From: Minisyncoccota bacterium
Lineage (GTDB): Bacteria; Patescibacteriota; Minisyncoccia; Phycocordibacterales; CAIJYI01
Length of the DNA: 64,000 nt
Assembly: GCA_023229825.1 (NCBI GenBank)
Contig: JALNYN010000005.1
Coordinates: 1,933-65,932, forward strand
Reading direction: 5' to 3'
In this document: positions 6,102-64,000 of the stretch, in pieces
Layout: every line of letters starts with the position of its first letter
Position numbering within the stretch: position 1 is the first letter of the stretch
The notes under the pieces: generated by a model
Databases searched by the model: none
Told to the model about the DNA's origin: nothing
Seen by the model: the letters and a program-made list of their open reading frames with translations, nothing else
Program-made: the position numbers and the translations under genes

Positions 6102-6169
6102 ATCAAAATAAAGCCGTCCAAAAGGGCGGTTTTTTGCTTACAAGCCAAAAATATGGTAAAAATAGAGAT

Positions 6170-7501
6170 ATGGAAAATCAAAAAGTTACGATGGATAAGA
6201 TCGAATCCCTCGCAAAACGGCGCGGTTTCATTTATCGCGGATCAGAGATCTACGGCGGACTTGCCGGGACATGGGACTACGGACCGCTCGGCGTCGCGCT
6301 CAAAAAGAATATCAAAGACCTGTGGTGGAAACGTTTCGTCGAAGATAGAAGCGATATGTACGGCGTGGACGCGGCAATACTGATGAGTTCAAAAGTATGG
6401 GAAGCGGCAGGACACGTGGCGACATTTACCGACCCGATGGTGGAATGTGAAAAATGCAAAAAAAGGTTTCGCGCGGATCATCTTTCTCCAGACGGGAAAA
6501 CGGATTTTTCTTGGGTATGTTCGGAATGCGGACATTCCAATGGGCTTTTTGAACCTCGCCAATTCAACATGATGTTCAAGACATCCATCGGGGCGGTGGA
6601 GGATTCTTCTTCGATCGCGTATCTTCGACCGGAAACGGCGCAGGGGATGTTTGTGAATTTCAAAAACGTCGTCGATTCTTTTCATCCTCGATTGCCGTTT
6701 GGCATGGGACAGATCGGCAAAGCGTTCCGCAACGAAATTACCCCGCGCGATTTCGTGTTCCGCACTCGCGAGTTCGAGCAGATGGAGATAGAGTATTTTG
6801 TTAAACCGTCCGAATGGGAAGAACATTTCGAACTCTGGCGGAAAGAAATGCATCAGTGGATGGAAGATATCGGATTGCGAAAAGAAAATATCCACGAACT
6901 TGAAGTTGCAGACGAAGATCTGGCTCACTATTCGAAGCGTACGATAGACTTTGAATTTGATTTTCCGTTCGGTAAAAAAGAATTGTACGGTCTGGCGTAT
7001 CGCACTGATTTTGATCTGACAAGCCACCAAAAAGAAAGCACCGTTTCGTTGGAATATATCGACGAAGCGGAAAAAACAAAATACATCCCGCACGTGGTCG
7101 AGCCGACCTTCGGACTGGATAGAACGATCCTTGCCGTACTCTGTACCTCATACCACGAAGAAGATGTGGAAGGAGAAACGCGCGCCGTTTTACGCCTCCC
7201 GAAACAACTCGCCCCGATCAAAGTTGCGATCTTGCCGCTTTCCAAAAAAGAAGAACTTTCCGCCGTGGCGCGTCCGATCTTCGATACGCTGAAAAAAGAT
7301 TTTGTTGTTTCGTACGACGAAACGCAATCCATCGGCAAGCGTTATCGCCGTCAGGATGAGATCGGTACGCCGTATTGCATCACCGTCGATTTTGAAACTC
7401 TGAACGACAAAGCCGTAACCGTCCGCGACCGCGATACGATGAAACAGGAGAGGATAGCGATCGAAAAACTGCCTGAGTATTTGAAAGAGAAATTCCAATA
7501 A
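6170..7501 (+). CDS. glyQS: glycine--tRNA ligase (dimeric class II GlyQS type)
   Basis: IYGGLAGTWDYGPLG, zinc-ribbon insertion CEKCKKRF...CSECGH, class II motifs, C-terminal anticodon-binding domain; likely start at MENQK. Confidence 0.9.
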   Translation: MENQKVTMDKIESLAKRRGFIYRGSEIYGGLAGTWDYGPLGVALKKNIKDLWWKRFVEDRSDMYGVDAAILMSSKVWEAAGHVATFTDPMVECEKCKKRFRADHLSPDGKTDFSWVCSECGHSNGLFEPRQFNMMFKTSIGAVEDSSSIAYLRPETAQGMFVNFKNVVDSFHPRLPFGMGQIGKAFRNEITPRDFVFRTREFEQMEIEYFVKPSEWEEHFELWRKEMHQWMEDIGLRKENIHELEVADEDLAHYSKRTIDFEFDFPFGKKELYGLAYRTDFDLTSHQKESTVSLEYIDEAEKTKYIPHVVEPTFGLDRTILAVLCTSYHEEDVEGETRAVLRLPKQLAPIKVAILPLSKKEELSAVARPIFDTLKKDFVVSYDETQSIGKRYRRQDEIGTPYCITVDFETLNDKAVTVRDRDTMKQERIAIEKLPEYLKEKFQ

Positions 7502-7615: not shown

Positions 7616-8102
7616 GGCAAATTCTAGCATATGCCGCCTAGCCGGATTAATTTGGTTGATAATCGCTCGGACCATAGACCATTTTTCATCCAGTTTTATC
7701 CAAAACAAAAACGAGTATCGCCGGACGGGGTTTGTAACCCCGTCCGAAACGTTTGGCGATCTTGATCGAGTCTGTGCTTCAAATTAACCATAAACGAAGC
7801 CTCCAAATGTTTCGGACAGGGGTATCCCGCTCGCAAGCGGGACCCCGCACGCTGCGGTGGCAACCCCAGTCCGGCGACGGGGCTGTGATCGGATCATATT
7901 TTCATTCGTATACAGATATTCATATATTATTTTTGCGATCAAAATTGCTGATTTCAACTTCGCAACATGACAATTCTCATGTATTTTTTTCATACACGCG
8001 AATTGTGTCAAAAAACGTCAAAAAAGGCTTGCGCTATCGAACTAAAACTACGATAGCACCAACCAAGTTAACGCGGCTATCACGCATATGCTAGAATTTG
8101 CC
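7616..8102. mobile_element. MITE-like non-coding element bounded by 19-bp perfect terminal inverted repeats (ggcaaattctagcatatgc)
   Basis: Left end ggcaaattctagcatatgc and right end gcatatgctagaatttgcc are exact reverse complements; interior has no credible ORF and carries a family-A structured repeat. Confidence 0.55.
7719..7882. repeat. family-A palindromic repeat, copy 1 (inside the TIR element)
   Basis: ccggacggggtttgtaaccccgtccgaaacgtttgg ... ccaaatgtttcggacagggg ... caaccccagtccggcgacgggg; nested hairpins; related copies at 19.2 kb and 31.8 kb. Confidence 0.55.
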
Positions 8103-8231: not shown

Positions 8232-9635
8232 TCACCAATTATTGGCGACGAATTCAGCAAGTTCGCTTCTTTCGCAGCCGACGAGCGTCACATGAGCGCA
8301 TCTCTGGCCGATCTTCGAGGATTCTACCGCATGGGTAAGTCCGCATGATTCGGCGGAAAGATACTGAGATGCAATTTGCCGGACATTTCCGAGAAAGACG
8401 AATTTCGTTCCCGGACCGGCGCGCGTGCCCAAGTCGAGCGCTTGTTTTGGCGTTAAATTTTCCGCTTCATCAACGACAACGAACTTTCTGTGGAATGTTC
8501 TGCCCTGCATCGGTCCAATGGAACGCATTTTGACGTAGCGCTTCATTAGATCCTGTGCCGTTTGTTTATGTGCAGCATCGATGCCTGATGTCAAAAAATC
8601 AAGGTTGTCGGTAAATGCCATAAGCCATGGAGCCATTTTCTGCTCTTCGTTGCCCGGAAAGGTCCCAGGGTCGATACCGATCGGCATGATCTCTTTGGTA
8701 ATAGTAATCTCGTTGTAGAGACGCCAGTCAATTACCTGCTCCAGTGCGGCAGCAAGAGTGAGGAGTGTTTTTCCCGACCCGGCTTTTCCGGCCCCGGAAA
8801 CGAAATGAATTTCAGGGTTCATGAGGGCATTCATAAAGAAGTTCTGCTCTTTATTGAGTGCATGAAGTCCCCAAACATTCTTATCTTTCGTATAATCATA
8901 AATAGTGCTGATGGTTGCGTAGCCTTCATAGTCGAGTTTGCGAACCATGAATTCTTGAATTCCTTCCTCTGTGATCAGGGTAAGAAATTGATTCGGAAAC
9001 CATGCGTTGGAAAGAGTGGTTTTTATATCCCAATACGTGAGTCCGTTCTCTTCTTTTTCGCTGAGCTTTTTGGTTTTTTTCCAAAAATTTTCCGGCAGAT
9101 CCGCCATTCCGCTGTAGAGAAAGTTGATATCGTCGATCGCTTTGGCTCTGGCGTACTCTTCCACTTTGACACCGCACATGAGCGCGGTGATCCGCGCGAT
9201 GCTATCTTGCGTTATGAAAATAACGTCAACGCTTTCCCCGAGTTTTTTTTGTAGTTCGCTCGCAAAATTTATGATGGGTGCATCGGGATTGAGCGGCATG
9301 AGCAGCAAGCTGGCATGACTTGATTCAAAAAATACGCGTCCGGTTTTTGAAGAAGGACCTTTTTTTCCGTAATAGGAAATAGCTTTGGATATCGGAAGTC
9401 CTTTTTCCAGATCGTCGGGACTGGCGCCGCGAAGAAGTTCGGAAAAATATTTGGTGGTGTGCCGAGCATTTTTTGCAAGTTCCGGTTTTCGGATATTGGT
9501 CTTATGATTATCCAGTTCGCGCATAACGGCGATAGGGACATAAATGTCATGCTCGTCGAAATTAAAAAGCGCGGCGGGATCATTCCCATAAATGCAGGTA
9601 TCCAGTACGAATACCGTTTCTTTTGTTCGCTTCAC
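8232..9635 (-). CDS. PhoH2-type protein (N-terminal PIN domain fused to PhoH-like ATPase)
   Basis: PIN-like VFVLDTCIY...D residues N-terminally; Walker A GAGKAGSGKT, Walker B VVVDEAEN; probable GTG start preceded by GGAGG (ORF track extends to 9689). Confidence 0.8.
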   Translation of the reverse strand: MKRTKETVFVLDTCIYGNDPAALFNFDEHDIYVPIAVMRELDNHKTNIRKPELAKNARHTTKYFSELLRGASPDDLEKGLPISKAISYYGKKGPSSKTGRVFFESSHASLLLMPLNPDAPIINFASELQKKLGESVDVIFITQDSIARITALMCGVKVEEYARAKAIDDINFLYSGMADLPENFWKKTKKLSEKEENGLTYWDIKTTLSNAWFPNQFLTLITEEGIQEFMVRKLDYEGYATISTIYDYTKDKNVWGLHALNKEQNFFMNALMNPEIHFVSGAGKAGSGKTLLTLAAALEQVIDWRLYNEITITKEIMPIGIDPGTFPGNEEQKMAPWLMAFTDNLDFLTSGIDAAHKQTAQDLMKRYVKMRSIGPMQGRTFHRKFVVVDEAENLTPKQALDLGTRAGPGTKFVFLGNVRQIASQYLSAESCGLTHAVESSKIGQRCAHVTLVGCERSELAEFVANNW

Positions 9636-9769
9636 GGGGCATCCTCCTTTTTGTGGTTTAGGGTGGTCAATAATTGATGAACTTTTCAAGGTTCAATATG
9701 ATGTCATCTACTATAAAACTACCGCATTAGCGAGTTAGCGTCAATGACGAATCTTGGCACATTTAACCG

Positions 9770-19143: not shown

Positions 19144-19217
19144 TTCAGCGATGTTTGTTATAATTATATAATTCACCTTACTCAGATTTTTAAAAATTGA
19201 CATAATTCGTTGTCGTC

Positions 19218-19325
19218 CGTTGCCCGACGGGGTTTGTAACCCCGTTGGAACGTTTGGAAATAACGATGAATGTGGTTTATTACAAACGTTTCGAACGGGG
19301 TCAGAGACCCGCGTCCGGCGGCTAT
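19218..19325. repeat. family-A palindromic repeat, copy 2 (intergenic)
   Basis: cccgacggggtttgtaaccccgttggaacgtttgg ... caaacgtttcgaacggggtcagagacccgcgtccggcgg. Confidence 0.55.
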
Positions 19326-19367
19326 AAAATTTCGTGAGTAAAGTGAATTATATAAAATATATTCATT

Positions 19368-25532: not shown

Positions 25533-25663
25533 CGTCGTCGTTCCTCCTCCCCCTCTTCAGAGGGGAGGACTGAGGTGGGGTGGTCTTTCAAACAGCTCTC
25601 GATATCACACCCCCTCTCGATCTCCCCCTCTGAAGAGGTGGAGAGGAACGAACGACAATGACG
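25533..25663. repeat. 130-bp imperfect palindromic element (single copy in window)
   Basis: cgtcgtcgttcctcctccccctcttcagaggggagg ... ctccccctctgaagaggtggagaggaacgaacgac arms. Confidence 0.5.
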
Positions 25664-26350: not shown

Positions 26351-26400
26351 CGTCATCCCCCCACCGTCATTCCGGACCGCGATCCGGAATCCACGTCCGT
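26351..26400. repeat. family-B REP unit (singlet), copy 1
   Basis: gtcattccggaccgcgatccggaatccacgtc. Confidence 0.55.
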
Positions 26401-26405
26401 CGGCG

Positions 26406-27116: not shown

Positions 27117-27185
27117 AGTGTTGACAACAATAGCTTGTTTATGGTATTATGTCAAGTGGATTTTAAGTAACTGCTCAAACCCTCT

Positions 27186-27270
27186 CGTCATCCCGGGCAA
27201 CGACCCGGGATCCACGGCGTAAACGGAACGACCAACGTGGATCCTGAATCCCTGTTCAGGATGACGACGA
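27186..27270. repeat. family-B REPIN-like element, copy 2
   Basis: gtcatcccgggcaacgacccgggatccacg ... cgtggatcctgaatccctgttcaggatgac. Confidence 0.55.
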
Positions 27271-31495: not shown

Positions 31496-31530
31496 TAACG
31501 CTGTCGGCATAGTCCGACAGCGTTTTTTTT
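31496..31530 (+). terminator. rho-independent terminator
   Basis: aacgctgtcggcatagtccgacagcgtt + tttttttt. Confidence 0.8.
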
Positions 31531-31562
31531 GTATCATTGTACGAAAATGATATACTATACTG

Positions 31563-33212
31563 GTGGAAAATCTTGAGCAAAAACGACGAGTTTTGAAACG
31601 ACTGCGCGAATGGAGAGATGCGGAGGCTAAACGCATGGGCCTTGATTTTTTTCGCGTGCTTTCCAACGATGCGGTAAATGGCATCGCGGAAACTTTGCCG
31701 ACGACGAAAGAAGCGCTTTTGGAAGTGAAAGGGATCGCCGAGAAAAAATGGCAGACGTACGGGAGGGATATTCTTGCCATTGTGGCGGAAGAAACGACGC
31801 AAGGACTTTTTGCGACGGATGCCGTCGCCGGACGGGGGTTGTACCCCCGTTCGAAACGTTTGGATGAAAGCACGGAAGAAACAATAACCAAAACATCCGA
31901 ACAGGGGTACAACCCCAGTCCGGCGGACGGAAATTATGACGAAACTGAAAACGATGGCTCCCGCGATGGCTATCGACAATCCGGCGAAAAGGTCTTTACT
32001 GTTGCCGACTACTTGGAAATTCTTAATACCGGACTCCGGCAGTTTGAAGCGAAAGTCATTGGCGAGATCACCAGTTTGGATATTCGCGACAAATATATTT
32101 TTTTCAGCATCAAAGATAAAAAGGACAACGCGATGATGTCGTGTTTCATGTGGGGCTCGTCGTATAAAATGAGCGGAATTTTACTGGAAGAAGGAATGGA
32201 AGTGGCGGTGCATGGTTTTCCCGAAATGTACAAGCCGAGCGGACGCATGACGTTCCGCGCCGACAGCGTGGAATTGGTAGGCGAAGGCGCGCTTAAAAAA
32301 GCATACGATGAACTGAAAAAGAAACTTGAAAAGGAAGGGCTGTTTTTGGAGAGCAGAAAAAAACCGATCCCCGAATATCCTCAAAATATCGGGCTGATAA
32401 CATCAGAAACCGGCGCGGTCATTCACGACTTTTTGAATAACATCGGAAAATTCGGTTTCAAAATATCATTCCGCGATTCGCGCGTGGAAGGCGCGCTGGC
32501 GGTGAAAGAATTGGTGAGTGCTGTGAAATATTTTAAAAAACAAAAATCTATTGATGTATTAGTTTTGATCCGCGGAGGCGGTTCGCTCGAATCCTTGCAG
32601 GCGTTCAACAATGAAGCGCTGGTGCGCGAAATTGCCGATTGCCCGTTTCCCGTGCTGGTCGGCATCGGACACGACAAAGATGTGCCGCTCGTTTCGCTTG
32701 TTGCAGACAGAGCCGGCTCAACACCGACGGCCGTCGCCAAACTGCTTAATTCGACGTGGGAGCAAGCGCTGGCGAAGGTACGGCTTCACGAACAAAAAAT
32801 TTTGAATCGTTTTTCAGAAGCATTATATGAGAAAAAAGATAATTTGCGCGATCGTTCGGAACACATCGAAAAAAAATTCCGCATGATCTTTGAGAGATTT
32901 CGAAACGCGGAAGAAAAAATAAAAAGAAATTTCGTCGCTATCGGAAGCGCCATGGCGCGTGCAAAAGAACGGCTCGATCACTCGCAGAAAACATTAAAAG
33001 AAAAATTAACTGATGACATTCGGCGCTCTAAAGAAAAGATCATATACATCGAAAAAATGCTTGTCGCGAATAACCCCATGCGCCAGCTGAAACTCGGATA
33101 TTCGCTCGCTCTTTCAAAAGGCAAGGTGGTAAGAAAGATAGAAGATGTTGCGAGCGGCGATGAAGTTGATATCAGGGTAGAAAATGGGACGATTAAAACA
33201 AAAGTGGAATAA
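31563..33212 (+). CDS. xseA: exodeoxyribonuclease VII large subunit with N-terminal HRDC-like domain and repeat-derived linker
   Basis: FTVADYLEILNTGL... OB-fold N-terminus and catalytic core (IRGGGS, GIGHDKD); residues 1-70 HRDC-like; residues ~75-140 encoded by family-A repeat; GTG start. Confidence 0.8.
   Translation: MENLEQKRRVLKRLREWRDAEAKRMGLDFFRVLSNDAVNGIAETLPTTKEALLEVKGIAEKKWQTYGRDILAIVAEETTQGLFATDAVAGRGLYPRSKRLDESTEETITKTSEQGYNPSPADGNYDETENDGSRDGYRQSGEKVFTVADYLEILNTGLRQFEAKVIGEITSLDIRDKYIFFSIKDKKDNAMMSCFMWGSSYKMSGILLEEGMEVAVHGFPEMYKPSGRMTFRADSVELVGEGALKKAYDELKKKLEKEGLFLESRKKPIPEYPQNIGLITSETGAVIHDFLNNIGKFGFKISFRDSRVEGALAVKELVSAVKYFKKQKSIDVLVLIRGGGSLESLQAFNNEALVREIADCPFPVLVGIGHDKDVPLVSLVADRAGSTPTAVAKLLNSTWEQALAKVRLHEQKILNRFSEALYEKKDNLRDRSEHIEKKFRMIFERFRNAEEKIKRNFVAIGSAMARAKERLDHSQKTLKEKLTDDIRRSKEKIIYIEKMLVANNPMRQLKLGYSLALSKGKVVRKIEDVASGDEVDIRVENGTIKTKVE
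31824..31932. repeat. family-A palindromic repeat, copy 3 (inside xseA reading frame)
   Basis: cgccggacgggggttgtacccccgttcgaaacgtttgg ... ccgaacaggggtacaaccccagtccggcggacgg. Confidence 0.55.
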
Positions 33213-33224
33213 AACAATCCTTCG

Positions 33225-33330
33225 TCGTCATTCCGGCCCACGAGCCGGAATCCACGTCCGTCGAAAACGTGGATCCCGGGTCCATCCTTCGCAAAGGCTT
33301 CGGCATGGCGCAGCGTTGCCCGGGATGACG
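33225..33330. repeat. family-B REPIN-like element, copy 3 (long subtype with 35-bp insertion)
   Basis: cgtcattccggcccacgagccggaatccacgtc ... ggatcccgggtccatccttcgcaaaggcttcggcatggcgcagcgttgcccgggatgac. Confidence 0.55.
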
Positions 33331-33358: not shown

Positions 33359-33574
33359 ATGGAAAAGAAAACAAATGGAGTAAATTTGAACGAAACTTTG
33401 AAAAAATTGGAAGCCATTTCTTCTTGGTTTGATTCTCAGCGCGAGGTCGATGTGGAGGAAGGACTGAAGAAAGTAAAAGAGGGTGCCGAACTGATCAAAG
33501 CGAGCAAGGCGCGTCTTGCAGAGATCGAGAATGAGTTTGAAGAAGTGAAGAAGGGGATGGCGGACGATGATTAA
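33359..33574 (+). CDS. xseB: exodeoxyribonuclease VII small subunit
   Basis: 71-aa helical protein LEAISSWFDSQ...EEGLKK...GAELIKASKARLAEIE pattern; adjacent to xseA. Confidence 0.75.
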   Translation: MEKKTNGVNLNETLKKLEAISSWFDSQREVDVEEGLKKVKEGAELIKASKARLAEIENEFEEVKKGMADDD

Positions 33575-38392: not shown

Positions 38393-38546
38393 CTTAACCA
38401 ATGCAACCGACGTCAACATTACAAAAAATATCCCACCGAAAATTTCAGACAAACGGCACCCGGTTTTTTCCGCGCGACACTTTCATATGCAAAAAGAAAC
38501 GTTACAACACGCGTTTATCAAAACAATGGTGCCTGTCCCCATTTTC
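38393..38546. repeat. ~160-bp direct repeat unit H, copy 1 (ends in family-C REP-like hairpin)
   Basis: ttaaccaatgcaaccgac...ttccgcgcgacactttcatatgcaaaaagaaacgttacaacacgcgtttatcaaaacaatggtgcctgtccccatttt; near-identical at 40160-40333, degenerate at 40814-40979. Confidence 0.6.
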
Positions 38547-39674
38547 CACAACTGGATCCCGCCGAAAAGCGTGCGCGTGGTGCAGATCGCCGGATGGGGA
38601 ATACCTGATACCATTCGCGGACTCGAATACAAAGGGAATTTTCACGAACGATGTACCAGCGCGGGGATGAACAGTTTTTGTCACGACGAAGGAACGTTTG
38701 ATTATGCTCCTCTCTTTACGTTCGACGGCGATGGAACAGTGGTTTTTCCGAGTCAGATCGGAATGGCAACGGCGACGGAGATGTATTTTGTGGATTTAAA
38801 TGGGTATAATAATTCGCTCGGTAACTCAACAATAAATTTTCGAAAGGATAGAACGCATGCTTCGGTACTAGAAGTGGGTGATCTGAGAGATTTATTGAAA
38901 AGCATAATTTCAGAAGAAATAAATCCAGCGAATGGTTTGAATTACATTAAAACCAGCATTACTCAGTTAAACACGGGAAGCCTTAAAAAACTCATCCGCC
39001 TTTCCCTTCGTTCCCCCGTAAAAATCGACGTCTTTGACCAGCAAGGAAGCCATATCGGAATTTCCTCAAGCTCAACGCCAAGTTATACACTCTACGATAC
39101 TCAAATGCCGAACTCATATTATTTAGAAATGGGAGAGGGAAAGTATCTCGGTTTTTCGCTTGATTCGACGAAGACGATAAAACTTCAAGGTATAGGAACG
39201 GGAACTTTCACTTTATCATTCGATCAATATCAAGGAGATACCAAGGAAGCGTCTCAAACTTTTACTGATATTCCGGTAAGTACAACGACCAAAGCGACGC
39301 TTTTGATGAGTACTATAAATGATGCTAAGGAACTTTCTCTTGATAATGATGGAAATGGAACAATTGACACGATTGTCTTCACTGACGAAAACAAAGAGAC
39401 GATAACCTTTCAAACTCTGAAAAATGAAATTCTAAAACTTGATTCAAAAGTACGACCTTCTTTGGTCAATCAAGTTTCAACTGCGGAGAAACAATTTGCC
39501 AAAAAGAATTATACCACAACAAAAGCGCTGTTTATTGTTCTTAAAAAAGAAATCAACCTCCTTTCGCAAAAAAAGATAGGGAATAAATGGCAGATTGAGA
39601 AAATTCAGGCATTAAAAATCTTGGCAGTAATTGACGTACTTATCGCTCAAATGGATGAGTTTGTTCATCGCTGA
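38487..39674 (+). CDS. paralog of the C-terminal ~400 aa of the giant protein (lacks signal peptide, beta-helix and hydrolase parts)
   Basis: HNWIPPKSVRVVQIAGWG / LSLRSPVKIDVFDQQGSH / GTGTFTLSFDQ / LDNDGNGTIDTIVF align with residues ~1000-1397 of 33727..37920. Confidence 0.5.
   Translation: MQKETLQHAFIKTMVPVPIFHNWIPPKSVRVVQIAGWGIPDTIRGLEYKGNFHERCTSAGMNSFCHDEGTFDYAPLFTFDGDGTVVFPSQIGMATATEMYFVDLNGYNNSLGNSTINFRKDRTHASVLEVGDLRDLLKSIISEEINPANGLNYIKTSITQLNTGSLKKLIRLSLRSPVKIDVFDQQGSHIGISSSSTPSYTLYDTQMPNSYYLEMGEGKYLGFSLDSTKTIKLQGIGTGTFTLSFDQYQGDTKEASQTFTDIPVSTTTKATLLMSTINDAKELSLDNDGNGTIDTIVFTDENKETITFQTLKNEILKLDSKVRPSLVNQVSTAEKQFAKKNYTTTKALFIVLKKEINLLSQKKIGNKWQIEKIQALKILAVIDVLIAQMDEFVHR
38525..38545 (+). 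repeat. family-C REP-like hairpin (aatggtgcctgtccccatt)
   Basis: AATGG...CCATT stem with tgcctg loop; coincides with codons MVPVPIF of downstream ORF and with the start of homology to the giant protein. Confidence 0.5.
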
Positions 39675-40166: not shown

Positions 40167-40333
40167 AACGTGAGAAAATTTTAACCAATGCAACCGACAG
40201 TAACATTACAAAAAACATCCAACAGAAAATTTCAGACAAACGGCGTCCGATTTTTTCCGCGCGACACTTTTATATGCAAAAAGAAACGTTACAACACGCG
40301 TTTATCAAAACAATGGTGCCTGTCCCCATTTTC
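40160..40333. repeat. direct repeat unit H, copy 2
   Basis: Starts within the last codons of paralog 2 and runs through a second copy of the MQKETLQHAFIKTMVPVPIF start and REP-C hairpin. Confidence 0.6.
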
Positions 40334-40372
40334 GCTTTGTTTGAAAGATTAAAAGAGATAATTATGAAATAA
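40274..40372 (+). pseudogene. truncated remnant of a 38487-type gene (first 20 codons identical, then stop)
   Basis: MQKETLQHAFIKTMVPVPIF identical to N-terminus of 38487..39674, followed by 12 unrelated codons and a stop. Confidence 0.45.
40312..40330 (+). repeat. family-C REP-like hairpin
   Basis: aatggtgcctgtccccatt. Confidence 0.5.
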
Positions 40373-49027: not shown

Positions 49028-49102
49028 TCGTCATTCCGGACTTGATCCGGAATCCACGTCCGGCGGTATGGCGTGGATCCCGGGTCCCGGCCCGGGATGA
49101 CG
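49028..49102. repeat. family-B REPIN-like element, copy 4
   Basis: gtcattccggacttgatccggaatccacgtc ... cgtggatcccgggtcccggcccgggatgac. Confidence 0.6.
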
Positions 49103-51203: not shown

Positions 51204-51221
51204 ATATTTTTTTTCGCCCGT

Positions 51222-51298
51222 CGTCATCCCGGGCAGCGACCCGGGATCCACGGAGAGCGATGACACGACGTGGATTCCGGGTCGCGGCCCGGAATGAC
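51222..51298. repeat. family-B REPIN-like element, copy 5
   Basis: gtcatcccgggcagcgacccgggatccacg ... cgtggattccgggtcgcggcccggaatgac. Confidence 0.6.
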
Positions 51299-51350
51299 GC
51301 GGAATGGAGGCGATACCCTTGAAAGAACTCTATTAAATAAAAAAAATATT

Positions 51351-52443: not shown

Positions 52444-52487
52444 AACGGTTGGACGCGTCCAAATAATGCCGTAATCGTTGTTTTACT

Positions 52488-52547
52488 GTCATCCCGGGCC
52501 GAGACCCGGGATCCACGTCGGTAGTTCGTCCGATGCGGATGATGACG
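52488..52547. repeat. family-B REP unit with partial partner, copy 6
   Basis: gtcatcccgggccgagacccgggatccacgtc ... ggatgatgac. Confidence 0.5.
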
Positions 52548-55428: not shown

Positions 55429-55454
55429 TAAAACACGCATTCACAAAAAAACTC

Positions 55455-55567
55455 GTCGTCATTCCGGACAGCGATCCGGAATCCACGTCAGTGGAACTAT
55501 TAACGTGGATCCCGGATCCATCCTTCGCCAAAGGCTACGGCATGGCGCAGCGCGGTCCGGGATGACG
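55455..55567. repeat. family-B REPIN-like element, copy 8 (long subtype)
   Basis: cgtcattccggacagcgatccggaatccacgtc ... cgtggatcccggatccatccttcgccaaaggctacggcatggcgcagcgcggtccgggatgacg. Confidence 0.6.
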
Positions 55568-55674: not shown

Positions 55675-58146
55675 ATGACAGAAACAGGATTGAGAAAAAA
55701 ACGGCTCAAAATTAAGATACAGGGCACCGTACAAGGCGTCGGATTCCGACCTTTTGTGTTGCGGCTTGCTGAGAAACTGGGTGTTTTAGGCTGGGTTATT
55801 AACGGCGTTCGAGGCGTTGAGATCGCTGCAGAGGCGGATGTGATAGACCTTCTTGAATTTGCCCGGTGCGTTGTAGATCATGCTCCCGAAGTGGCGGCGA
55901 TCGATTTCGTGGAATATTCGTATCTCGACGATACGGAAAAATATGAAAAATTCGAAATTCGCGAAAGCGACAATTTTGGAGAAAAAACAGCCTTGGTGCT
56001 TCCCGACTTGGCAACATGTCCGGAGTGCCAAAGCGAAATATTCGACAGAAAAAATCGGCGCTTTCGGTATCCGTTCACGAACTGCACCAACTGCGGTCCG
56101 CGACATTCAATTATCGAACGGGTCCCGTATGATCGCCCGAATACATCGATGAAAGTTTTTCCGATGTGTCCGGAATGCGAGAAAGAATACAACGATCCTG
56201 CGAATCGCAGGTTCTATGCACAGCCGAACGCATGCCCAGTTTGCGGTCCGCATTTGGTACTGCTGGATCAAAATGGAAAAGATCTCGCAACTCGAGATAG
56301 TGCGCTTCGTATGGCAGAAGAATATATTGATTACGGAAAAGTCGTCGCCTTAAAAGGGCTTGGCGGTTTTCAATTGATAGTCGATGCCATTAATCCGATC
56401 GCGATCAAAAAGTTGCGCGAGAGAAAGGGACGGCCAGGACAAAAACCGTTTGCGGTTATGTATCCGAACATTGAACTGGTAAAAGCGCATTGCGAAGTTT
56501 CGATGGAAGAAGAAAAACTTCTTTTGTCCCGACAATCGCCGATCGTGCTTTTAAAGAGGAAGGACCGTCCTTCCGAAGTTGAGAAAGTTCCACATAAAGA
56601 TATCGCTCCCGATAGCAACGTTCTCGGCGTGATGCTTCCATACACTCCGCTTCATCATCTATTGATGGCGGATCTCGGTTTTCCGATCGTTGCCACGAGC
56701 GGCAACTTGTCGGACGAGCCTATCATTACGGATGAGGATGAGGCGGTCGTATTGCTTGGACATATTGCGGACGCTTTTCTCGTTCATAATCGCGGTATCG
56801 TTCGTCACGTTGACGATTCGATCGCGAGAGTGATAAACGGGAAGACTGTCATCTTGAGAAGGGCGCGGGGATACGCTCCGATGCCTATAAAAGTCGAAAG
56901 TCGAAAGTCCCTGCTTCGCCAAGGCTATGCAGGGCAAGCACCAGTCGAAAGTACGCCGACGATCGTGGCTTTTGGTCCAGATCTGAAAAATGTGGGGGCG
57001 GTTCTCACCGATGGCAAAGTCTATTTGACACAGCACATCGGCGATATGGGAACCACAGCTTCCGGGGACGCACTTTTGAGATCGATCAACGACACGCTCG
57101 CTTTTCGGGAGAAAAAACCGGAGGCGGTTGTCTGCGATCTGCATCCCGATTACGCATCGACAAGAATGGCGGAAGCGTTTGCCGAGGAACATCACATTCC
57201 TCTCTATCGCGTCCAGCATCACAAAGCGCATATTTTATCCGCAATGACTGAAAATGACATTGTAGGAAAAACAGCGCTCGGTGTGGCTTGGGACGGTACG
57301 GGATACGGCGAAGACGGCACGATCTGGGGCGGAGAATTTTTCCGCGTCAGCGAAACCGGCCTCACGCGCTACGCGCATTTGCGCACTTTCGGTTTGATCG
57401 GCGGCGACAAAGCCGCACGTGAGCCGAGATACTCCGCAGCCGCGATCCTTTATGAGATCTACGGAAAAGAAATTTTCGATTCCGACAGATTCGCATCGGT
57501 GAAAGCGCTGATTGGCGTTGAAAGGAAACTCTTTCCTCAAATGCTGAAAAACAAAATGAACGTCGTTATGACATCCAGTGCCGGAAGATTGTTCGATGCC
57601 GTCGCTTCGATCCTAGATATTTGCCACTCGTCCGATTATGAAGGGCATGCGGCGATACTTTTGGAACAGGCGATCGGCGATGAAACGACCAATGAAAATT
57701 ATGAGATATCCGTCGTAAAAGATGGGGATGAATATATATTTAATTGGGAACCGATGATCCGCGACATCGTATATGAATACGAGTTGGGAATTCGTCCGGG
57801 CGTTATTGCGAAAAAAATTCACAATACGCTCGCGAGGGTGATCGCTCGAATTTTTCTCGTTTCAGGAGAAGGACGGCTTGTTCTTTCCGGCGGATGTTTT
57901 CAAAATAAATATCTGTTGGAAACAACGATAAAAAAACTTGAGGGATATTCGGACGACGGCAGAATATTCACTCAAGGCAAGGTGCCGATGAATGACGGAG
58001 GCATTGCTCTCGGTCAGATCACGGCGGTGTTAGATTCCGTCCGTCATTCCGGACTTGATCCGGAATCCACGTCGGAAACGTTAAATATAGATTCCGGGTC
58101 CATCCTCCGCCAAGGCTACGGCATGGCGCGGCGTTGCCCGGAATGA
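55675..58146 (+). CDS. hypF: [NiFe]-hydrogenase maturation carbamoyltransferase HypF
   Basis: Acylphosphatase domain (IQGTVQGVGFRPFV), two CxxC-x18-CxxC zinc fingers, YrdC and Kae1-like domains; last ~35 codons lie in a family-B repeat. Confidence 0.9.
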   Translation: MTETGLRKKRLKIKIQGTVQGVGFRPFVLRLAEKLGVLGWVINGVRGVEIAAEADVIDLLEFARCVVDHAPEVAAIDFVEYSYLDDTEKYEKFEIRESDNFGEKTALVLPDLATCPECQSEIFDRKNRRFRYPFTNCTNCGPRHSIIERVPYDRPNTSMKVFPMCPECEKEYNDPANRRFYAQPNACPVCGPHLVLLDQNGKDLATRDSALRMAEEYIDYGKVVALKGLGGFQLIVDAINPIAIKKLRERKGRPGQKPFAVMYPNIELVKAHCEVSMEEEKLLLSRQSPIVLLKRKDRPSEVEKVPHKDIAPDSNVLGVMLPYTPLHHLLMADLGFPIVATSGNLSDEPIITDEDEAVVLLGHIADAFLVHNRGIVRHVDDSIARVINGKTVILRRARGYAPMPIKVESRKSLLRQGYAGQAPVESTPTIVAFGPDLKNVGAVLTDGKVYLTQHIGDMGTTASGDALLRSINDTLAFREKKPEAVVCDLHPDYASTRMAEAFAEEHHIPLYRVQHHKAHILSAMTENDIVGKTALGVAWDGTGYGEDGTIWGGEFFRVSETGLTRYAHLRTFGLIGGDKAAREPRYSAAAILYEIYGKEIFDSDRFASVKALIGVERKLFPQMLKNKMNVVMTSSAGRLFDAVASILDICHSSDYEGHAAILLEQAIGDETTNENYEISVVKDGDEYIFNWEPMIRDIVYEYELGIRPGVIAKKIHNTLARVIARIFLVSGEGRLVLSGGCFQNKYLLETTIKKLEGYSDDGRIFTQGKVPMNDGGIALGQITAVLDSVRHSGLDPESTSETLNIDSGSILRQGYGMARRCPE

Positions 58147-58147
58147 C
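58043..58147. repeat. family-B REPIN-like element, copy 9 (long subtype) overlapping hypF 3' end
   Basis: cgtcattccggacttgatccggaatccacgtc ... attccgggtccatcctccgccaaggctacggcatggcgcggcgttgcccggaatgac. Confidence 0.6.
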
Positions 58148-63217: not shown

Positions 63218-63228
63218 TAGGTAATGGT

Positions 63229-63247
63229 AATGGGGTCAGGCACTATT
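63229..63247 (-). repeat. family-C REP-like hairpin, inverted orientation, immediately upstream of RAYT
   Basis: aatggggtcaggcactatt = reverse complement of aatagtgcctgaccccatt. Confidence 0.55.
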
Positions 63248-63261
63248 GTTTTTAAAAAAGT

Positions 63262-63957
63262 ATGATACAATATTCTCCTATGCCAAGAAATGAAAGAGTT
63301 GATGTCGGGGGTGAAGTCTATCACGTCATAAACAGAGGAAATGGCAGGCAGACTATTTTCCAAAATGAAGAAGACTATCTTCTTTTTGAATCACTGCTTG
63401 AACACGCAAAGGAATTTATTGTGGATATGAGAATCATCGCTTATACGATTATGCCGAATCATTGGCATCTTGTTTTGTATCCAAAAAAGGACGGTGATCT
63501 TTCTCTCTTTATGCACTGGCTTACGACAAGCCACACCCGAAAACATCATGTCATGAAAGAAAATATCGGTGGCGGGCATCTCTATCAAGGAAGATACAAA
63601 TCATTTCTTGTGGATACGGACAGTTATTTTCTCTCTGTTTTTAAATACGTAGAAAGAAATCCGATGAGGGCAAAGTTGACGGAAAATTGTGAAGATTGGC
63701 GATGGGGAAGTTCGTGGAGAAGATCGAACGGTTCGGAAAAAGAGAAAAAATTGCTTTCCTCGCCGCTCGTTGATTTTCCGGAAAAATACAGCGTATGGAT
63801 AAACAAACCGGAAAAAGAAGATGATGTTGTAAAGATCAGAAATTCGATAAATAAAGGAGTACCGTATGGTCGCGATATTTGGAGTATGGATATGGTTGAA
63901 AAATATGAATTGTCTTCATCGCTGAATAAGCCGGGGAGACCGAAGAAAAAACATTAG
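63262..63957 (+). CDS. REP-associated tyrosine transposase (RAYT; IS200/IS605-like Y1 HuH transposase family)
   Basis: HuH motif IMPNHWHLVL and catalytic Tyr context YQGRYKSFLVDTDSYFLSVFKYVERNPMRA; flanked by inverted REP-C hairpins. Confidence 0.8.
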   Translation: MIQYSPMPRNERVDVGGEVYHVINRGNGRQTIFQNEEDYLLFESLLEHAKEFIVDMRIIAYTIMPNHWHLVLYPKKDGDLSLFMHWLTTSHTRKHHVMKENIGGGHLYQGRYKSFLVDTDSYFLSVFKYVERNPMRAKLTENCEDWRWGSSWRRSNGSEKEKKLLSSPLVDFPEKYSVWINKPEKEDDVVKIRNSINKGVPYGRDIWSMDMVEKYELSSSLNKPGRPKKKH

Positions 63958-63972
63958 AACATGAAAATTACA

Positions 63973-63995
63973 AAAGAATGGTGCCTGACCCCATT
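63973..63995 (+). repeat. family-C REP-like hairpin, direct orientation, immediately downstream of RAYT
   Basis: aaagaatggtgcctgaccccatt. Confidence 0.55.
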
Positions 63996-64000
63996 AACCA

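Follow-up and report, generated by a model that had tools for sequence, protein, structure and literature searches.

How does a repeat that otherwise lies between genes come to be part of a coding sequence? The question is raised by a 64,000-nt stretch (the window) of contig JALNYN010000005.1, from a Parcubacteria/Paceibacterota genome, in which a palindromic element that we call family A lies inside xseA, the gene for the exonuclease VII (ExoVII) large subunit, here with the N-terminal HRDC domain typical of the clade. The likeliest answer, to which we assign a probability of roughly 85%, is that the element is a passenger REPIN (a doublet of repetitive extragenic palindromic [REP] units that folds as a hairpin) translated within the disordered tether of a functional HRDC-XseA protein. 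This reading is carried by the identity of the element with intergenic copies, by its absence from close orthologues, by the lack of predicted structure in the segment that hosts it, and by the conservation of both the domain fusion and the catalytic residues.

The HRDC-xseA gene and its linker

Profile searches bore out the preliminary description of a continuous 549-codon open reading frame (ORF) encoding HRDC and XseA (Table 1). The HRDC profile was matched over its full domain (65.2 bits, cutoff 23.8; profile positions 3-68 of 68), and the domain resembles the BLM and RecQ HRDC domains in the PDB and is modelled by AlphaFold2 as a helical bundle with a predicted local distance difference test score (pLDDT) of ~90. 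Further downstream, the OB fold (PF13742, 51 bits) and the catalytic region (PF02601, Exonuc_VII_L, 219 bits) both exceed their curated cutoffs, PDB 8txr is matched at E 7e-43, and the protein passes the TIGR00237 xseA equivalog (313.8 bits vs a cutoff of 180, E 1.8e-93). Residues D289, R337, H370 and D373 align to D155, R205, H238 and D241 of E. coli XseA, which are its catalytic residues (PMC3439923), and all four are invariant in an alignment of 32 homologues; the PDB 8txr match agrees with the E. coli sequence used for this comparison. Like canonical E. coli XseA (PDB 8txr; PMC3439923, PMC10835039), the window protein has an OB fold, a D/R/H/D catalytic domain, a coiled coil, a C-terminal segment and an adjacent xseB, whilst it differs in having HRDC as an additional N-terminal domain, with a disordered tether.

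The preliminary description had the repeat join the HRDC domain to the ExoVII core. We examined the best 120 protein-search matches (460-567 aa, identity down to 43%), of which those named were Parcubacteria, Paceibacterota or Patescibacteria. Both domains were present in 120/120, including orthologues without the repeat, as was a native linker: fusion and linker are ancestral, and the repeat did not make them. That HRDC is not a normal part of XseA, as had also been proposed, holds for the canonical enzyme and fails for this clade, where the domain is normal. We found no mention of the HRDC-XseA architecture in the structural and functional papers on ExoVII that were searched, and its clade-wide occurrence is documented here.

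In the 32-sequence alignment the end of HRDC ('...EETTxGLF') and the start of XseA ('DGxxDGYRQSGEKVFTV') form conserved borders around a stretch whose length and sequence are hypervariable. AlphaFold2, run on the same alignment, modelled the XseA core with confidence and gave the linker a pLDDT of 29-37 without secondary structure, in keeping with the disorder initially suspected. The linker had been equated as a whole (~65 residues) with the repeat; instead, the element spans only residues ~87-124 of 81-141, so that ~38 of ~61 linker residues are repeat-derived and the remainder, including the ends GLFATD and YDETENDGSRDGYRQSGEK common to orthologues, is native.

Could the long ORF be an artefact of reading through an open intergenic repeat that separates an HRDC gene from xseA? 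Every other internal copy of the repeat in the window does sit between genes, and the hairpin is as strong as those of inter-cistronic REPs. Against this, the 120 best homologues are all single HRDC+XseA proteins, some lacking any repeat, and in orthologues the frame runs on into the native 'DGxxDGYRQSGEK' segment. A terminator scan, which placed the upstream gene's intrinsic terminator at 31497-31524, found no terminator-like site inside HRDC-xseA or after the element. Moreover, reading of the sequence between the element and the OB-fold motif FTVADYLEIL revealed no in-frame ATG, GTG or TTG, as the preliminary description had stated. The conserved fusion and the missing start codon therefore refute the split-gene alternative raised there, to which we give almost no credence.

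TATACT, with TTGTAC upstream of it at approximately the right spacing, lies a few bases before the xseA GTG start (31530-31565), and the mRNA may be leaderless or very short-leadered; a consensus promoter scan did not report this TTGTAC/TATACT site.

Table 1 Features of the window discussed in the text, with positions counted from its first nucleotide.
Feature	Position	Strand	Details
HRDC-xseA fusion gene (exonuclease VII large subunit)	31563..33212	+	GTG start, 549 aa ORF
HRDC domain	31587..31784	+	residues 9-74, PF00570, E 5e-18
Disordered interdomain linker	31803..31985	+	residues 81-141, ~61 residues; hypervariable block in 32-sequence alignment
Family-A palindromic doublet (REPIN-like), 113 nt	31822..31934	+	in-frame, residues ~87-124 (AVAGRGLYPRSKRLDESTEETITKTSEQGYNPSPADGN)
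Left REP unit	31825..31863	+	small hairpin ACGGGGG-TTGTA-CCCCCGT with GAAACGTTTGG tail; nhmmer E 1.5e-11
Right REP unit, inverted	31888..31925	-	pattern match with 3 mismatches
OB-fold DNA-binding domain of XseA	32031..32270	+	residues 157-236, PF13742 and PF01336
ExoVII catalytic, coiled-coil and C-terminal domains	32340..33200	+	residues 260-546, PF02601, E 1e-64
Repeat cluster in xseA-xseB spacer	33222..33329	+	unit of CGTC-ATTCCGG..CCGGAAT-CCA type and D4 family; families D2, D4
xseB (exonuclease VII small subunit, 71 aa)	33359..33574	+	PF02609, E 1e-5
Intergenic family-A doublet	7718..7882	+	flanked by ORFs 6134-7501 and 8232-9689; right half holds an extra small hairpin
Intergenic family-A doublet	19216..19327	+	folds at -57.3 kcal/mol, z = -6
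RAYT-like Y1 transposase	63262..63957	+	Pfam Y1_Tnp, 5e-14, 52.9 bits, above cutoff

Structure and copies of the family-A element

A repeat at ~31824-31932 had been related to copies at 7719-7882 and 19218-19325, and this relationship was confirmed: the xseA copy is a 113-nt doublet at 31822-31934, and a degenerate 34-nt arm pattern matched 3 times in the window against 0.00 expected (100 shuffles). The family-A unit consists of the stem CGGACGGGG (9-bp GC), a loop of 5-7 nt and a GAAACGTTTGG tail, and the window holds five such units at three sites, two of them intergenic. Both intergenic copies are built alike, as unit, spacer and inverted unit. Within xseA the inverted arms (31826-31863 / 31888-31925) are 84% complementary according to the repeat finder, the whole element folds as one long hairpin (-63.3 kcal/mol, z = -8.3), and the left unit is 92% identical to the intergenic copy at 7718-7756. 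The corresponding repeat family, D9, comprises 7718-7756, 19220-19258 and 31825-31863, with identities of 92% and 77% to the reference copy. No Rfam family covers the element at gathering thresholds, the matches being RNase P and two tRNAs. Scanning for G+C-rich islands was uninformative for repeats because the genome has 45% GC and coding regions dominate the list.

The copies differ in their coding potential. Of the six frames, 4 are open in the xseA copy, whilst stops interrupt 3 in one intergenic copy and 5 in the other, and in the xseA frame the copy at 7718 carries a TAA in its loop (TTTGTAA) where xseA has the variant TTGTAC. The xseA element keeps the frame and has no stop in it, and it is therefore predicted to be translated as ~38 extra linker residues. 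Predicted tryptic peptides spanning the element include LDESTEETITK and TSEQGYNPSPADGNYDETENDGSR.

Ribosomal bypassing, for which T4 gene 60 and the mitochondrial 'byp' elements are the comparison cases, would instead have the ribosome skip the element, from the GGA codon of residue 90 to that of residue 123. Matching GGA codons do flank a very stable hairpin. However, no stop codon follows the putative take-off site, and the intragenic copies are all stop-free and frame-preserving, unlike the intergenic ones, as is predicted by selection for ordinary translation; bypassing is accordingly extremely improbable.

Equally remote is a repeat collapsed or mis-joined into the gene during assembly. 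Short repeats can mislead assemblers, and the exact window protein had no match in a contig index look-up, yet an identical 549-aa protein is recorded from two contigs, in-frame elements occur in orthologues from independent assemblies (JGI, ENA, Logan and a metagenome-assembled GTDB genome), and the 113-nt element is shorter than a read pair.

Elements in the linkers of orthologues

A scan of metagenomes with the protein gave 4 loci, and orthologue DNA was then gathered for individual proteins. We fetched the DNA of ten orthologous loci, all of which share the gene order glycosyltransferase, 230-aa protein, HRDC-xseA, xseB. Three of them (L003, L005 and L006), whose proteins are 78-83% identical to that of the window, have short K/E-rich linkers and no element; the L003 linker folds at -7.9 kcal/mol (z 0.17). 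Full family-A doublets, with folding energies of -60 to -78 kcal/mol (z -6 to -13), are present in the window, L001, L002, L008 and L010. The initial proposal of a mobile palindromic element inserted in frame and tolerated in a disordered linker agrees with this absence, with the 92% intergenic identity and with the lack of predicted structure in the region.

The elements differ in position, frame and kind. Those of L007 and L008 directly follow the native 'GL', and in the window, L001, L002 and L010 the element starts 3-6 codons downstream of 'GLF'. Orthologues use two reading frames for the right arm (EQGYNPSPAD vs RTGVQPQSGD), and loop subtypes vary between orthologues, although both arms of any one copy have the same subtype. 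In L004 the family-A unit is single and is flanked by a 9-nt direct repeat, TGACGACGA, in a region rich in GACGA codons; L004 has, in addition, a stretch that resembles the D4 family of the window when peptide and DNA are compared by eye, at a similarity below the blastn threshold. Several linker units are close to intergenic repeats of the window: those of L007 and L009 are 95-97.5% identical to 25539-25582, and those of L001 and L004 are 92-95% identical to 19284-19321. Likewise, peptide 6-mers from the six-frame translations of the window's intergenic repeats were present in 7/90 homologue linkers and in none of the 43,509 aa of non-linker sequence.

On a neighbour-joining tree built from non-linker columns, presence and absence of the element are patchy, and the sister pairs P0003/P0004, P0009/P0010 and P0013/P0014 differ in its presence. 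We therefore read this pattern, from sequence comparison, as probable repeated gain and loss of REPs at one permissive site.

Alternatively, a single insertion in an ancestor of this group of Paceibacterota may have been diversified by later deletions, indels and arm-to-arm homogenisation. The shared left junction of the window, L001, L002 and L010, always 3-6 codons after GLF, would fit such an origin, and the junction of L007/L008 is derivable by deletion between the native GTCGCCGGAC and the element's own GTCGCCGGAC; palindromes are prone to deletion. Nevertheless, the sister pairs differ, loop subtypes vary between orthologues yet match between the arms of each copy, and the L001 arms are closer to the intergenic copy 19284-19321 of the window (92%) than to its xseA copy. 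In addition, other orthologues have units of unrelated families (D, C) at this linker. A single insertion is possible, if unlikely.

A further alternative is that an inserted element has been co-opted, either as a hairpin with a regulatory role at xseA (by pausing, by effects on mRNA processing or stability, or by letting a hairpin-processing repair enzyme sense hairpin-forming DNA) or through a functional peptide. The hairpins of all five intragenic doublets have remained very stable (z -6 to -13), although such stability is equally expected from recent palindromic insertions, and Di Nocera et al. doubted that chance accounts for many intragenic REPs in replication and repair genes (PMC3733652). 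Close orthologues lack the element, however, the encoded peptide differs by frame between orthologues, and the region has no predicted structure, all of which makes co-option improbable.

Two further sets of peptides were seen in the homologues. P0006 and P0013 have the extra peptides NGSTRLTTGK / SFGTAQDKK in a second XseA loop, after 'YFKK' (alignment columns 416-433); these could again be pieces of translated repeats, at a second permissive site. The linker peptide EGSETVGFRS(V)VSR is common to P0017, P0019, P0026 and P0027 and, judging from its sequence, looks like another translated repeat family ('E?').

REP families, RAYT genes and other repeats

We scanned 596 Gb for the exact 34-nt unit pattern and found it in more than 116 stretches of species-representative genomes, a lower bound; because the pattern has more than 23 specified bases, we estimate the chance expectation at far below one. 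Among the matches listed, the hosts include many Methylobacter genomes, Thiomargarita nelsonii, Thiotrichaceae and Rhodocyclaceae, the complete Desulfonema magnum chromosome, which has dozens of sites, and, from the candidate phyla radiation (CPR), Paceibacterota, Parcubacteria and Peribacteria. One Paceibacterota match (L052) is an orthologous xseA with an in-frame element, and more family-A copies lie in the related CPR contigs L004, L007, L011 and L028. In other genomes the unit occurs as inverted doublets of ~90-110 nt, and a difference of just 1 nt in 38 separates some copies from different phyla. CGTC or TGTC precedes GCCGGAC in most CPR copies (the window xseA copy, L002, L008, L010, L028), but not in copy 7718 (TATC) nor in those of Methylobacter and Desulfonema.

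Clustering of ORFs from the fetched unit-bearing loci brought out genes for REP-associated tyrosine transposases (RAYTs; NF047646, up to 195 bits). At three Methylobacter loci (L022, L049 and L087) a RAYT gene is directly flanked by family-A units, and family A is therefore a REP/REPIN family, a class whose other marks it also bears: a repeated, mostly intergenic palindrome, with inverted pairs that fold as one hairpin. The converse idea that the intergenic copies originated from xseA was rejected, given the wide distribution of the unit and its association with RAYT genes.

Under the passenger reading, a disordered, sequence-unconstrained linker would tether HRDC to the OB fold, and a REPIN-type element of two inverted ~38-nt REP hairpin units, 113 nt in total, would have become part of it, leaving the enzyme intact despite ~38 extra residues. 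The element would owe its spread to a RAYT, a single-strand transposase of Y1/HUH type, as its Methylobacter relatives appear to do, and insertions would persist since the linker is presumably one of the few harmless spots in a compact genome.

Several points weigh against this reading. In the CPR sequence examined, no RAYT gene was flanked by family-A units; the top 120 relatives of the Methylobacter RAYT were all of Methylococcales/Thioploca type, with none from CPR; and the RAYT-like gene of the window is flanked by a repeat other than family A. For the xseA element no target-site duplication or clean empty-site junction was definable, because the linker is too variable, and 7-10 nt at the left junction coincide with native GCCGGA codons. 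Nor did a consistent duplication emerge from the window's three family-A copies; the element is palindromic throughout. A single ancient insertion, followed by deletions and homogenisation, may also be the source of part of the orthologue pattern, and we infer both the translation and the activity of the HRDC-XseA protein.

In-frame insertions of this kind, including some in repair genes, have already been described (PMC3733652, PMC10969869), so that the locus is less unusual than first supposed; the case works in a known way, and what is new is the host lineage, the host gene and the REP family. The GTAG- and CGTC-tagged REPs in the catalogue of Di Nocera et al. (2013) are short G+C-rich hairpins that for the most part lie between genes, in many cases as inverted dimers able to form long hairpins (PMC3733652). 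In that catalogue a minority lies wholly within ORFs and in frame (dimers adding 20-30 aa, clusters 43-82 aa), many intragenic REPs are in replication and repair genes, tolerance in flexible linkers or loops is suggested, and some correspond to the Rickettsia palindromic elements (RPEs) RPE-4 and RPE-6. Family A resembles these intragenic REPs as an in-frame inverted dimer within the linker of a repair gene, and differs from them in its Parcubacteria/Paceibacterota host, in the gene, xseA, and in the presence of several families in the same orthologous linker; it also falls outside the definition of CGTC-1 to CGTC-4 (8-9 bp stem starting with AT, 4-5 nt loop, CCA tail).

RPEs (Ogata et al. 2000) are ~100-150 bp and lie in frame in unrelated genes of a reduced genome, as PMC10969869 summarises. 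Compared by insertion mode alone, the family-A element is like them in adding a peptide segment without destroying the protein; for RPEs many insertions across many genes of one genome have been reported, against one internal and one C-terminal case (hypF) in the 64 kb here. REPINs, for their part, have been described as extragenic and largely lineage-specific (Bertels and Rainey 2011, PMC3116915). Family A shares with REPIN-RAYT systems the inverted REP doublet, the ~100-nt hairpin and relatives that flank RAYT genes in Methylobacter, and departs from them (PMC3116915) in being intragenic in xseA and in having a unit common to several phyla. Our literature search found no paper on REPs or on miniature inverted-repeat transposable elements in CPR bacteria, and strings of the family-A unit sequence returned chance matches in unrelated papers only.

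If the passenger reading is correct, REP-type selfish hairpins would invade coding sequence in ultra-small CPR genomes much as RPEs do in Rickettsia, and a disordered interdomain tether would act as a safe harbour for insertions. For annotation, odd CPR peptides (GLYPRS..GYNPSP, HPTSILPSEE, GPAFAQGYGAAK) would then be translated repeats and not domains.

Of the leads from this analysis, the most novel is the occurrence of the unit across phyla, through which horizontal REPIN spread could be tested. One Paceibacterota and one Methylobacter assembly carrying the unit share the record label OW334, which suggests a shared sampling site. Given this label and the sharing of a near-identical unit across phyla, REPIN populations may move between phyla, possibly between CPR episymbionts and hosts, and, as a linked reading, the HRDC-XseA tether may be a true multi-family REP hot spot; we regard both as speculative and rather unlikely. 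Were it true, movement between phyla would contradict the view of REPIN-RAYT systems as vertically inherited, and shared REPINs could serve as a marker of host linkage.

Three further contexts of the unit were observed. In Desulfonema a family-A doublet is nested within another inverted-repeat element (CATATGCATCAGGCTAAGA...), in L124 the unit forms a 43-nt tandem array, and exact matches to the pattern occur in the viral contigs L127, L128 and L129 (IMG/VR).

The RAYT-like gene of the window scores 58 bits (9e-16) against NF047646 REP_Tyr_transpos, below the cutoff of 80. Its flanks, 63223-63250 and 63958-64000, are inverted copies of AATGGGGTCAGGCAC(C/T)ATT, a motif that recurs in the D5 and D1 repeats, with related copies at 38491-38548 and 40278-40335. 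Gene and flanks may together be the REPtron of a second REP family in this genome.

The commonest repeat of the window is another, CGTC-ATTCCGG(N)..CCGGAAT-CCA-CGTC, with copies at 26361-26404, 27182-27225, 33222-33265, 49029-49060, 51218-51304, 52483-52526, 55453-55496 and 58042-58073. This repeat, CGTC-ATTCCGGAC..GATCCGGAAT-CCA (families D2 and D11), has the features by which CGTC-tagged REPs have been defined (stem of 8 bp that begins with AT, short loop, CCA tail), and these REPs form a superfamily that includes Rickettsia RPE-4/6 and Neisseria dRS3 (PMC3733652). All copies are intergenic except one, in the tail of a HypF-like ORF (55675-58146, 823 aa). The last Pfam domain of that protein stops at residue 781, and its final ~38 residues (..VRHSGLDPESTSETLNIDSGSILRQGYGMARRCPE*) are encoded by two repeats of intergenic type (D11 and D4; 58042-58147). 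This C-terminal extension is thereby the window's second case of a translated repeat.

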